Assembly: GCA_031459855.1 (NCBI GenBank)
Contig: JAVKHP010000001.1
Span: 1,993,078 to 2,057,077, forward strand
Source of the DNA: Candidatus Fervidifonticultor primus
GTDB lineage: Bacteria > Sysuimicrobiota > Sysuimicrobiia > Sysuimicrobiales > Humicultoraceae
DNA: 64,000 nucleotides
Reading direction: 5' to 3'
In this document: positions 47,653 to 50,655 of the stretch, one piece after another
Layout of the letters: every line of letters starts with the position of its first letter
Position numbering within the stretch: position 1 is the stretch's first letter
Translations under genes and position numbers: made by a program
The notes under the pieces: model-generated
Told to the model about the DNA's origin: nothing
The model's input: only the letters and a program-made list of their open reading frames with translations
Databases searched by the model: none

Positions 47653-47781
47653 GCCCTCAGGGTGACAGATTCACTGAGCCGTTAGGGGGTGACAAAATCA
47701 ATGAGCTATTACACACCCGCGCACAGGGGTTGACGCCCACGTCAGGCTGTGCTAGTTTGACACTCAAACTGCATAGGCGTG

Positions 47782-47886
47782 CTCTTATCAAGAGTGGGTG
47801 AGGGACGGGCCCGATGACCCCCGGCAACCTGCCGCCGCCGCGGTAAGGTGCCAAGCCCCGCGGAACCCAGTTCCGGCGGATAAGAG
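47782..47886 (+). promoter_or_regulatory. SAM-I (S-box) riboswitch aptamer
   Basis: CTCTTATCAAGAG..GGGTGAGGGAC.GGCCCGATGA..CCCGGCAACC...GGTGCCAA..CCCGCGGAA...GGATAAGAG: P1 pairing and conserved S-box core elements; candidate promoter TTGACG-17-TAGTTT at about 47730-47758. Confidence 0.8.
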
Positions 47887-47891
47887 GGTGG

Positions 47892-47930
47892 AACCCCTCC
47901 AAGCGCAGGAAGTGGAGGGGTTTCTTGTTA
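47892..47930 (+). terminator. Riboswitch expression-platform terminator
   Basis: AACCCCTCCA / TGGAGGGGTT 10-bp stem with 11-nt loop followed by T-rich TCTTGTT, ending just before the thrB-like GTG at 47932. Confidence 0.7.
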
Positions 47931-47931
47931 C

Positions 47932-48852
47932 GTGTGGCAGCGGGAGATGGGCGTGGCGGTTGCGCTGGAACGGGTCACGGTGCACGTGCCGGCGACGGTG
48001 GCGAACCTCGGGCCGGGCTTCGATTGCCTGGGCGCGGCGGTGAACCTGTTCGCCGAGGTCACCCTGGCGCCGGCGTCGACGCCGCGCGTCGAGGTGGCCG
48101 GCGTCGACGTGCCGCAGGACGCCACGAACCTGATCTACCGTAGCGCCCAGGCGGCAGCGGCGGCGGCGGGCTGGCAGGGGGCGTTCGCGCTGCGCGCGCG
48201 CTGGCCGATCCCGCTGCGCAGCGGCTTGGGCAGCAGCGCGGCAGCCATCGTCGGCGGGCTCGTGGCGGCGCACCGGCTGCTGGGCGACGCCCTGGACGCC
48301 CAGACGCTGCTGCGGCTGGCCACCGACCTCGAAGGCCACCCGGACAACGTGGCGGCAGCGCTGTTCGGCGGCGTGGTGGTCGTGGCACGTGACGGATCGG
48401 AGGTGCGGTGGGCGCGCATCGCGCCGGTGCTGCCGCTGGCCGTGGTGCTGGCGGTGCCCGCCCTCGAGATCGAGACCGCCGCAGCGCGGCGGGTGCTGCC
48501 AGCACAGGTCGCGCACGCCGACGCGGTGTTCAACGTGGCGCGCACGGCGCTGGTGGTGACGGCGCTGGCCACCGGGCAGGCGCAGGCCCTGCGGGGCGCC
48601 CTGCGCGACCGGCTGCACCAGCCGTACCGCGCGCCGCTGGTGCCGGGGTTCGCCGCAGTGGTCGCCGCGGCGGAAGACGCAGGCGCCTACGGTGCGGTGC
48701 TCAGCGGCTCGGGGCCTACGGTGGCGGCCCTGACGCCCCCCGCAGCGGCGGGCGCGGTGGGCGCGGCCATGGTGGCGGCGTTCGCGGCAGCCGGCGTGCA
48801 GAGCCGCGCGCTCGAGACGCAGATCGAGTTGCGGGGGGCGCTGGGGGGCTAG
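47932..48852 (+). CDS. thrB: Homoserine kinase (GHMP kinase); possibly MetM-type in a methionine pathway
   Basis: ...VPATVANLGPGFDCLGAAV... and GHMP motif ...RSGLGSSAAAIVGG...; 306 aa. Confidence 0.85.
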   Translation: MWQREMGVAVALERVTVHVPATVANLGPGFDCLGAAVNLFAEVTLAPASTPRVEVAGVDVPQDATNLIYRSAQAAAAAAGWQGAFALRARWPIPLRSGLGSSAAAIVGGLVAAHRLLGDALDAQTLLRLATDLEGHPDNVAAALFGGVVVVARDGSEVRWARIAPVLPLAVVLAVPALEIETAAARRVLPAQVAHADAVFNVARTALVVTALATGQAQALRGALRDRLHQPYRAPLVPGFAAVVAAAEDAGAYGAVLSGSGPTVAALTPPAAAGAVGAAMVAAFAAAGVQSRALETQIELRGALGG

Positions 48853-49132
48853 GCCGACGGCCGGGCACCTGCCGGTGGAGGGGCCCGTGGGTGACCGTGC
48901 AGTGCGCGATGGACTCTGACTGCGCGATCCAGGCGGCCTGGCGGGTCTAGTGAGTGCGACCGGCAGCCGGTGCTGATGCAGTGTGCCGCACGTTCACCGC
49001 GCGCGATCGCGTCGCAGCCCGCGGCGCCTGGACGCACGGGCAAGCCCTGTGGGGCGCGCGGGAAGCCGACGCGTGCGGTGGGAGCCGGCGGGTCGGCTGA
49101 ATGGCACGACGACGGCGTGGGGGAGGCGGGAG

Positions 49133-50359
49133 ATGGCGGTAGAGCGGTTGCGATGTCGTGAGTGCGAGGCGGAGGTGCCGGCAGGGCCGGTGTACGTCTG
49201 CGAGCGGTGTCTGGGCCCGCTCGAACCGGCCTACGACCTGGAGGCGCTGCGCCGCCTGCCGCTGCGGCAGCGTATCGAAGCCGGCCCGCGGTCGATCTGG
49301 CGGTACGTCGACCTGCTGCCGGTGCCCTACGATCCCGTGGTCGACCTCTCGCCGGGGTACACGCCCCTGATCCCGGCGCCACGCCTGGGTCAGCGCCTGG
49401 GGCTGCGGCGCCTGTACATCAAGAACGACGCCACCAACCCCACCTGGTCGTTCAAGGACCGGTCGGTCTCAATCGGCACGGCGGCGGCGCGGCAGTTTGG
49501 CTACCAGGTGCTGGCCTGCGCGTCCACAGGCAACCTGGCCAACTCCGTGGCCGCGCACGCCGCGCGTGCCGGCATGCGCGCCTACGTCTTCATCCCCGCA
49601 GGTCTCGAGCGCGGTAAGGTGCTGGCCTCGGCCGTCTACGGGCCGACCGTCGTGGAGGTGGACGGCAGCTACGACGACGTCAACCGGCTGTGCGCCGAGA
49701 TCGGCGAGGAGCACGCCTGGGCGTTCCTCAACGTGAACCTGCGGCCGTACTACAGCGAGGGTGGCAAGACCCTGGCCTTCGAGGTGGCCGAACAGCTCGG
49801 CTGGCAGGTGCCCGCCGACGTGGTGGTGCCCATCGCGTCGGGCAACCTGCTGGTGAAGATCCACCGCGGGTTTCAGGAGCTGGCGGCGGTCGGTCTGGTG
49901 GACGCGGCGACGGTCCGCGTGCACGGCGCCCAGCCGGCCGGGTGCGCGCCGGTCAGCGCGGCGTTCAAGGAGGGCGGGGCGATCCGGCCCGTCGTGCCCC
50001 GCACCATCGCGCAGTCGCTGGCGATCGGGACGCCGGCCGACGGCCGCTACGCGATCGCCGCGGTGCGGGCCAGCGGCGGCCGCATCGACGACGCCACCGA
50101 CGAGGAGATCGTCGAGGGCATCCGCCTCCTGGCCGAGTGCGAGGGCATCTTCACCGAGACCGCCGGCGGCGTGACCATCGCCGTGCTGCGGAAACTGGCG
50201 GCGGCGGGGGCGCTGGATCCCGACGGCGTCACCGTGGCGTGCATCACCGGCATGGGGCTGAAGACCGCCGATCACCTCGCCGGCGCACTGGCCGCGCCGG
50301 TGCGCGTGCGGCCGTCGCTGCGCGCCTTCGAGGCGGCGGTCCTGGCCCGGGTGTCGTGA
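49133..50359 (+). CDS. thrC: Threonine synthase-family PLP enzyme; possibly MetO-type homocysteine-forming enzyme
   Basis: N-terminal Cys-rich MAVERLRCRECEAEVPAGPVYVCERCLGPLE, PLP lysine ...NPTWSFKDRSV..., fold-type II pattern; internal ATG of track ORF 48983..50359 with GGGGGAGG upstream. Confidence 0.85.
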   Translation: MAVERLRCRECEAEVPAGPVYVCERCLGPLEPAYDLEALRRLPLRQRIEAGPRSIWRYVDLLPVPYDPVVDLSPGYTPLIPAPRLGQRLGLRRLYIKNDATNPTWSFKDRSVSIGTAAARQFGYQVLACASTGNLANSVAAHAARAGMRAYVFIPAGLERGKVLASAVYGPTVVEVDGSYDDVNRLCAEIGEEHAWAFLNVNLRPYYSEGGKTLAFEVAEQLGWQVPADVVVPIASGNLLVKIHRGFQELAAVGLVDAATVRVHGAQPAGCAPVSAAFKEGGAIRPVVPRTIAQSLAIGTPADGRYAIAAVRASGGRIDDATDEEIVEGIRLLAECEGIFTETAGGVTIAVLRKLAAAGALDPDGVTVACITGMGLKTADHLAGALAAPVRVRPSLRAFEAAVLARVS

Positions 50360-50370
50360 GGAGGACGACA

Positions 50371-50655
50371 GTGGCAACGATCCGCATTCCCACGCCCATG
50401 CGGCGGTACACCAATGGCGAGCGTCTGGTGACGGTCGAGGCGTCGACGCTGGCGGCGGCGATCGACGAGCTGGGCCGGCGCTTCCCCGGGCTGCGCGAGC
50501 GCCTGGTGAACGGCGACGGACAGCTGCACCACTTCGTGAACGTCTTCGTCAACGAGCAGGACGTGCGCACGCTGCAGGGCCTCGACACCCCGCTGGACGA
50601 GCGCGCCGAGGTGTCCATCATTCCCGCCATGGCCGGAGGTGCGCCGGCGTGGTAG
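50371..50655 (+). CDS. MoaD/ThiS-family sulfur-carrier protein (CysO-like)
   Basis: ...GQLHHFVNVFVNEQDVRTLQGLDTPLDERAEVSIIPAMAGG-APAW resembles CysO (...LHRFVNIYVNDEDVR...AVAGG) as I recall it; GTG with GAGGAGG upstream; Gly-Gly is followed by four residues. Confidence 0.65.
   Translation: MATIRIPTPMRRYTNGERLVTVEASTLAAAIDELGRRFPGLRERLVNGDGQLHHFVNVFVNEQDVRTLQGLDTPLDERAEVSIIPAMAGGAPAW

Follow-up and report, generated by a model that had tools for sequence, protein, structure and literature searches.

A 64,000-nucleotide stretch of DNA from Candidatus Fervidifonticultor primus (contig JAVKHP010000001.1, hereafter the window; G+C 72%) carries, at positions 47730-50655, an S-adenosylmethionine (SAM) riboswitch followed by three genes on the same strand, encoding a homoserine kinase (ThrB), a pyridoxal phosphate (PLP) enzyme with the fold of threonine synthase (ThrC) and a small ThiS-family sulfur carrier, a candidate MetM/MetO-type system for methionine biosynthesis (Table 1). 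An earlier reading of the letters alone (the sequence-only reading) had proposed an S-box aptamer with its own terminator upstream of a homoserine-kinase homologue, a threonine-synthase-fold enzyme and a CysO-like carrier, and profile and structure matches place each of these elements where it had put them (RF00162 and a 12-bp hairpin for the leader; TIGR00191, PALP/TIGR00260 and ThiS/3DWG for the three proteins). The gene order behind the switch likewise stands, but the genes do not all follow directly on one another, as a non-conserved spacer of 280 nt parts thrB from the enzyme gene.

Table 1. Features of the SAM-riboswitch locus, in window coordinates.
Feature	Position	Strand	Basis or detail
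Promoter	47730..47758	+	-35 TTGACG 47730-47735, 17-nt spacer, extended -10 TGCTAGTTT 47750-47758
SAM-I (S-box) riboswitch aptamer	47782..47886	+	Rfam RF00162
Intrinsic-terminator-like expression platform	47890..47929	+	12-bp hairpin 47890-47924, then UUGUU
thrB, homoserine kinase	47947..48852	+	TIGR00191, NF002288, GHMP_kinases_N and _C; open reading frame (ORF) opens at 47932
Intergenic spacer, thrB to PLP enzyme	48853..49132	+	280 nt, non-conserved
Putative MetM-type ThrC-fold PLP enzyme, 408 aa	49133..50359	+	PALP, TIGR00260, clade motifs
MetO-type sulfur carrier (ThiS/CysO-like), 94 aa	50371..50655	+	Pfam ThiS, CysO 3DWG

The covariance-model search gave a strong match for the aptamer: RF00162 aligns over its full length (model positions 1-108 of 108) with 85.7 bits, well above the gathering score of 44.4, at E = 7e-19 for the whole window. 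This is the sole SAM match in the window, a permissive rescan of positions 47200-51000 adding none, and our own covariance model R1, built from 22 riboswitch sequences (21 from related loci plus that of the window), gives the same aptamer 80.1 bits. Three nucleotides past the aptamer begins a hairpin with arms GGAACCCCUCCA and UGGAGGGGUUUC and an 11-nt loop, which is contained in the minimum-energy structure computed by RNAfold; a ACCCCUCC/GGAGGGGU hairpin with a U-rich tail is found in eight related leaders (L082, L083, L002, L003, L004, L005, L009 and L023). The hairpin was picked out by eye: a simple terminator scan of positions 47300-51000 returned nothing, because the loop (11 nt) is longer than the 8 nt that the scan allows and the run of U residues is broken. 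The promoter, too, was located by eye, a consensus promoter scan of the same interval reporting none and the -10 hexamer matching the consensus at three of six positions; its TTGAC-N17-TGnTA pattern is kept in all eight aligned leaders of the Armatimonadota clade, with diverging flanks.

The kinase is well supported by profile models, scoring 244.8 bits against the TIGR00191 equivalog (cut-off 168.25) and 203.6 bits against NF002288 (cut-off 194), and it has the ANLGPGFD and GLGSSAA motifs. Its likely start is ATG 47947 or GTG 47953, with a Shine-Dalgarno (SD) sequence, GGGAG, at 47942-47946. No homoserine dehydrogenase gene (hom) is detectable within the window. The spacer behind thrB is hypervariable, measuring 172 nt in two 96%-identical relatives (L083 and L084) and 32 nt in a 91% relative (L082), and an alignment among these close relatives shows nothing in common except the SD before the ATG. 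Positions 48853-49132 have no Rfam match at E <= 1 and no promoter-like site, and a check for a second RNA element or conserved motif there found none.

The carrier gene opens 11 nt past the stop codon of the enzyme gene, at GTG 50371 rather than 50368, with its SD (GGAGGA) at 50360-65. Its product matches Pfam ThiS with 54.3 bits, and its closest solved relatives are Mycobacterium tuberculosis CysO (3DWG, E = 3e-18), aligned through ...PAMAGG, and the carrier in 4N6E. The C-terminus reads ...AMAGG-APAW, four residues past the Gly-Gly pair. Roughly half of the carrier family ends exactly at GG and the other half with 1-14 extra residues, among them the tails AAAW, VLS, QR and MDPVRPRR. The APAW tail would therefore have to be trimmed before use, which implies that the carrier is matured by proteolysis. 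In one Omnitrophota metagenome-assembled genome (MAG; L080, 5580-6650), the carrier frame runs past Gly-Gly into a ThiF-family E1 domain, which could be a genuine fusion of carrier and E1 or else an artefact of assembly or of a frameshift.

An enzyme clade separate from threonine synthases

The central protein of the locus is a member of the PALP family (238.7 bits) that exceeds the cut-off of the general thrC equivalog TIGR00260 (276.9 bits; cut-off 167) and falls below that of the more specific threonine synthase model NF006050 (266 versus 303). The lysine that would bind PLP lies in NPTWSFKDR, in register with the SFKDR lysine motif of ThrC, and this residue (K108) is invariant in our alignment A1. 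The nearest solved structures are the threonine synthases of Thermus thermophilus, Aquifex, Bacillus subtilis and M. tuberculosis, to which the enzyme aligns only from residue ~52 onward. An N-terminal four-Cys ribbon (CxxC...CxxC) is present in the enzyme; as a marker of MetM we rejected it, since haloarchaeal plasmid thrC genes also align from residue 1-3.

To place the enzyme among its relatives, we scanned 100,044 species-representative genomes, confirmed 598 relatives and kept the best 80 (L001-L080), which span Armatimonadota, Chloroflexota, Actinomycetota, Nitrospirota, Nitrospinota, Aquificota and several candidate phyla. Alignment and tree comprised the window protein, these 80 relatives, one Nonomuraea protein, three solved ThrCs (T. 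thermophilus 1UIM, Aquifex 2ZSJ and B. subtilis 6CGQ) and three second ThrC-like copies from the same loci. The window enzyme is 52-78% identical to the members of its clade and 34-42% identical to the ThrC group; across the 81 clade members the minimum internal identity is 50%, and the maximum identity across to the ThrC group is 42%. The split between clade and ThrC group was recovered in 99-100 of 100 neighbour-joining bootstraps.

The two groups also differ at six motifs (Table 2). The window enzyme shows the clade state at all six, and the canonical ThrC segments of motifs 1, 2, 3 and 5 are all altered in it (ASTGNLANS, NVNLRPYYSEGGK, PIASGNLL and SLAIGTPADGRY). A protein that groups firmly with true threonine synthases would have spoken against the sequence-only reading; the separate clade with its six motif differences upholds it. 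The same six motifs occur in the Nonomuraea protein, and they provide a simple tool for telling MetM-type enzymes from true ThrC.

Table 2. Motifs that distinguish canonical ThrC from the clade of the window enzyme.
Motif	Canonical ThrC	Clade	Window enzyme
1	ASTGN-T-SAS	ASTGN-L-AN	ASTGNLAN
2	N-S(V/I)NPxR(I/L)EGQK	N(V/I)NxRPYYxEGxK	NVNLRPYYSEGGKT
3	PVGNAGNI	PxASGxxL	PIASGNLL
4	GAAP	GC(A/S)P	GCAP
5	AI(R/K)IGNPxSW (e.g. AIRIGNPASW)	S(L/I)AIGxPADGxY	SLAIGTPADGRY
6	EPASAA	ETAGGV	ETAGGV

Two loci of the Thermodesulfovibrio type (L073 and L078) encode, one after another, a MetM-type enzyme, a carrier, a NIL-domain protein and a canonical ThrC, and with both enzymes side by side the two are therefore coexisting paralogues. 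Database annotation does not reflect this division. The sequence-only reading had expected that such loci would usually be annotated as thrB/thrC, and indeed every one of 240 listed homologues is named 'threonine synthase', including an entry (P0001) from an Armatimonadota MAG that is 100% identical to the window enzyme, because the general thrC model TIGR00260 accepts the enzyme. Metabolic reconstructions built on this annotation will overlook the methionine route and may credit a genome with a second threonine synthase that it does not have.

Gene context and regulation across the family

Enzyme and carrier are paired in most of these loci: 74 of the 80, across about ten phyla, have a carrier gene behind the enzyme gene in the same orientation, mostly adjacent to it. 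Genes for the proteins expected to load and mature a carrier were sought by targeted tblastn, which replaced an all-versus-all clustering of ORFs made noisy by antisense shadow ORFs in GC-rich DNA. ThiF-family E1 genes are present in 27 of the 80 loci and JAMM protease genes in 16, and the Nitrospira loci, including that of the complete N. moscoviensis genome, show the order thiF-metM-metO-NIL-thiF-JAMM. A carrier is missing beside the enzyme in L009, a member of the thrB-containing clade, and five other loci also have none nearby. A cobalamin riboswitch in L009, considered as a marker of metE beside the operon, was rejected, as it precedes ribonucleotide reductase genes.

A further recurrent neighbour is a stand-alone NIL-domain protein of about 79-88 aa (PF09383), encoded in 49 of the 80 loci and mostly beside the enzyme/carrier pair (e.g. 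L065 7505-7741 and L007 7562-7825). The gene order is enzyme-NIL-carrier in Chloroflexota and enzyme-carrier-NIL in Nitrospirota, and the protein is absent from the window and from the Armatimonadota clade to which the window belongs. Many MetM/MetO systems may have in this protein a third component that has gone unrecognised.

Regulation by SAM recurs as well. An Rfam scan placed a SAM-I riboswitch directly upstream in 27 of 42 related loci scanned. Our own covariance model, run over 81 related loci and the window, returned 39 matches (37 of the 80 genome loci, Nonomuraea and the window), every one on the sense strand and upstream of the enzyme gene or its operon, with no match elsewhere in the riboswitch-bearing loci. 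All six close relatives fetched by exact-protein look-up (L082-L087) have a SAM-I riboswitch. Twelve further loci without a SAM match showed no other cis-regulator. One actinobacterial MAG without a SAM riboswitch (L006, 5664-5918) has a T-box, at 102 bits, before its enzyme-carrier-thiF genes; by manual reading, its specifier loop ends ...GAAC-AUG-A against the lower helix, giving the specifier AUG (Met).

The position of thrB sets the window and its nearest kin apart. Among the 80 loci, thrB lies upstream of the enzyme gene solely in the Armatimonadota lineage (L002-L005 and L009), to which L082-L087 are added, so that 12 Armatimonadota-lineage loci, the window included, hold thrB within the riboswitch unit. 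In each of these relatives the riboswitch precedes the thrB unit, and in L003 and L005 hom sits between riboswitch and thrB. The closest GTDB relative (L001, 78% identity, labelled Bacillota) has no SAM riboswitch; at 3537-5978 it carries an 813-aa ORF that ends with the C-terminal half of thrB and whose start, as read from its sequence, resembles a membrane cytochrome-biogenesis protein; a chimera in the MAG, or else a deletion, is the probable cause.

The nearest cultured anchor is Nonomuraea gerenzanensis, whose enzyme is 52% identical to that of the window and whose locus reads SAM riboswitch, enzyme (metM), carrier ending in GG (metO) and groEL, an order also seen in actinomycete MAG loci. 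This locus (L081, NZ_LT559118.1) lies on an 11.85-Mb chromosome filed in PLSDB as 'plasmid I' with 10 annotated features, and the enzyme/carrier locus itself is unannotated there. A tblastn search against plasmids gave no Streptomyces match, and the Nonomuraea enzyme, used as query in a protein search, brought up proteins of Streptosporangiales alone. The order in Nonomuraea matches that of SCO4293-SCO4296 in S. coelicolor. SCO4293 ("threonine synthase") and SCO4294 are listed as co-regulated with sulfate-assimilation genes. The actinomycete SAM-I aptamers (alignment A2, e.g. L017, L030, L036 and L070) mostly have no P4 and still score 57-89 bits, and in the two leaders examined (L017 and L081) 11-17 nt separate the end of the aptamer from the start codon, which suggests translational control in actinomycete loci.

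Proposed homocysteine route and its alternatives

A biochemical precedent for this architecture exists in S. albulus, where, as two later papers summarise the work of Hasebe et al. (2024, Appl Environ Microbiol 90:e01247-24), MetM converts O-phosphohomoserine to homocysteine with MetO-thiocarboxylate. One of the two, a GapMind preprint of 2026, describes MetM as a threonine-synthase homologue "often misannotated as such" and names Mec and MoeZ as required to mature and load MetO; the other, a 2025 mSystems paper, places a SAM riboswitch ahead of metM in S. albulus and metO next to it, and gives 51.6% identity between MetM and a cyanobacterial homologue. The window agrees with the S. albulus system in having a ThrC-homologous PLP enzyme followed by a ThiS-family carrier, with a SAM riboswitch upstream and the enzyme annotated as threonine synthase; the E1 (MoeZ) and the JAMM protease (Mec) are encoded elsewhere in S. 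albulus, and presumably so for the window. The sequence-only reading had invoked such a pathway, and the route does exist in the literature and fits the context; the names, however, had been blurred, MetM being the ThrC-like enzyme and MetO the carrier, with an ordinary ThrB as the kinase. The kind of pathway has thus been known since 2024 and is already in GapMind; what is new here is the phylum (Armatimonadota, not Actinomycetota) and the presence of thrB, sometimes with hom, under the SAM switch.

Taken together, we consider it very likely that positions 47730-50655 form a SAM-repressed operon that makes homocysteine by an O-phosphohomoserine/protein-thiocarboxylate route of the MetM/MetO type. 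Transcription would start at the conserved promoter, near 47765. Abundant SAM would bind the S-box aptamer, the downstream hairpin would form and transcription would terminate, whereas scarcity of SAM would lead to read-through. ThrB would convert homoserine to O-phosphohomoserine. By homology to the published S. albulus system, we infer that the MetM-type enzyme is an O-phosphohomoserine-dependent homocysteine synthase, which would eliminate phosphate and take sulfur from the thiocarboxylate at the C-terminus of the carrier to add it at C-gamma; a threonine synthase, by contrast, would add water at C-beta. The resulting homocysteine would be methylated to methionine by MetE or MetH, encoded elsewhere. 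For the carrier, we expect the APAW tail to be trimmed by a JAMM/Mec-type protease, followed by adenylation and sulfuration by a MoeZ/ThiF-type E1, with both proteins encoded outside the window. The occurrence of thrB and hom in one SAM-controlled unit in Armatimonadota points to O-phosphohomoserine as the substrate.

Several departures from the actinomycete systems accompany these likenesses. There the riboswitch abuts metM directly, whereas in the window thrB (and in two relatives hom) lies inside the riboswitch unit; actinomycete aptamers mostly lack P4 and, in the two leaders examined, end 11-17 nt before the start codon, whereas the window has a terminator-like hairpin; and the Nonomuraea carrier ends in GG, whereas that of the window continues with APAW. 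Compared with canonical ThrB/ThrC, the window system shares the kinase family, the O-phosphohomoserine intermediate, the PLP fold and the SFKDR lysine motif; it differs in having a SAM switch and a sulfur carrier alongside the enzyme, and the enzyme itself is only 35-42% identical to the solved ThrCs (1UIM, 2ZSJ and 6CGQ), which lack its N-terminal four-Cys ribbon. Delivery of homocysteine sulfur from the thiocarboxylate of a ThiS-like protein is not confined to ThrC-fold enzymes: in Wolinella succinogenes, Krishnamoorthy and Begley reportedly described in 2011 a HcyS/MetY system of this kind, with a JAMM protease and an E1 that mature and load the carrier. That system is said to use O-acetylhomoserine and a MetY-type (fold type I) sulfhydrylase, with neither O-phosphohomoserine nor a ThrC-fold enzyme.

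A number of observations weigh against a homocysteine-producing operon, or against parts of the scheme. The clade consists of the 80 best matches to the query, so that the identity gap to ThrC may partly reflect sampling and intermediate sequences may exist, and orthology to the characterised S. albulus MetM is proposed from shared architecture. The Microcystis aeruginosa homologue acted as a threonine synthase/deaminase and caused no rise in cellular methionine (2025 mSystems paper), and some clade members may not be dedicated to homocysteine synthesis. On the regulatory side, we found no convincing antiterminator helix, constrained folding giving just a weak 5-bp GAGGG/CCCUC option, and the U-tract of the terminator is imperfect (UUGUU). 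A tblastn search detected no ThiF, JAMM or NIL gene in the window, and the sulfur relay is therefore assumed to be encoded elsewhere. Finally, if the window thrB were the sole copy in the genome, repression by SAM would starve threonine synthesis too.

The threonine-related activities of the M. aeruginosa homologue in vitro, together with the TIGR00260 score and the name shared by all 240 listed homologues, are what would be expected of an ordinary thrB-thrC threonine operon that is incidentally SAM-regulated, encoding a true threonine synthase next to an unrelated small protein. We regard such an operon as highly improbable here, given the bootstrap-supported separation of the clade from the solved ThrCs, the six changes in otherwise conserved segments, the score below the NF006050 cut-off and the coexistence with canonical ThrC in L073 and L078. 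Nor would a threonine operon account for the sulfur-carrier gene that follows the enzyme gene in 74 of 80 loci, or for control by SAM riboswitches or a Met T-box and never by a threonine signal. A cysteine route has a close counterpart in M. tuberculosis, where the thiocarboxylate of a ThiS-like carrier likewise serves a PLP enzyme whose substrate is an O-phospho amino acid (CysM/CysO/Mec/MoeZ), O-phosphoserine being turned into cysteine; the closest solved relative of the window carrier is CysO from the CysM-CysO complex (3DWG), and in Nitrospira loci the pair is joined by JAMM and ThiF genes, much like the mycobacterial mec-cysO-cysM cluster. For the window we give this route hardly any credence, as its enzyme has a ThrC-like rather than a CysK/CysM-like fold, with threonine synthases acting on O-phosphohomoserine as its best solved matches, homoserine kinase (in relatives also homoserine dehydrogenase) lies within the riboswitch unit, and regulation runs through SAM or Met-tRNA with no cysteine signal. 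The published MetM, moreover, uses O-phosphohomoserine.

It is also conceivable that the enzyme acts on O-phosphohomoserine with free sulfide, or makes another gamma-substituted product, while the ThiS-like protein is an accessory or belongs to another thio-cofactor pathway. L009 and the five other loci without a nearby carrier fit this idea, as does the lack of an E1 or protease gene in the window, and for some clade members carrier-independent chemistry is possible. For the window we think it unlikely, in view of the enzyme-carrier adjacency across about ten phyla, the 11 nt between the two genes with a dedicated SD for the carrier, and the direct use of MetO-thiocarboxylate in the published system.

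Under the favoured MetM/MetO-type route, the comparative data independently support the pathway reported from Streptomyces in 2024 and extend it across about ten phyla, because SAM riboswitches or a Met T-box lie upstream, carrier, E1 and JAMM genes lie alongside, and thrB and hom belong to the SAM-controlled unit in Armatimonadota. We tentatively suggest, as a conjecture that could well prove wrong, that the MetM/MetO pair of this lineage may have recruited a SAM-repressed thrB of its own (in some members also hom), forming a self-contained module from aspartate semialdehyde/homoserine to homocysteine, parallel to a separate threonine branch. If true, dedicated paralogues would partition O-phosphohomoserine between methionine and threonine at the level of transcription, and the carrier tail would add proteolytic activation. 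An alternative, equally unusual, is that the window thrB is the sole copy and that threonine supply is coupled to SAM status.

Neighbouring features of the window

Just upstream of the riboswitch promoter, a divergent gene at 47305-47652 (-) encodes a small protein of 115 aa with HTH_28/HTH_29 (helix-turn-helix) domains, and a similar gene for a 133-aa protein occupies the equivalent position in a close relative (L086, 6100-6501 (-)); a regulator and a transposase-related remnant are both conceivable.

The window also has two fluoride riboswitches. One, at 37153-37216 (+) with 37.9 bits, precedes genes at 37236-39023 that encode two proteins, of 173 and 168 aa, matching no Pfam family, along with a DUF6062 protein. 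The other, which is stronger (41691-41753 (-), 56.8 bits), precedes genes for a transporter of the Na+/H+-exchanger family (40436-41707 (-)) and a major facilitator superfamily (MFS) transporter (39191-40372 (-)). In the 96%-identical L083, a fluoride riboswitch (39.1 bits), the first of the two unknown proteins (76% identical) and a second one of similar size lie at 3536-4642, immediately upstream of the SAM-riboswitch operon. The genes for the unknown proteins behind the fluoride riboswitch are new candidates for a response to fluoride. In L083 the two units lie next to each other (4642-4758); in the window about 9.4 kb (~38300-47700) part them, a stretch containing the DUF6062, MFS and Na/H exchanger genes, a sugar ABC transporter, a zinc-dependent alcohol dehydrogenase, an IclR gene and the small helix-turn-helix gene, which we therefore interpret as a recent insertion or rearrangement.

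Downstream of the carrier gene, ligA follows from 50722. Further on, at 53335-54657 (+), the window encodes a 440-aa protein with no confident domain and a weak C-terminal Hfq-like match, which is kept downstream of ligA and a Germane-domain gene in all close relatives.

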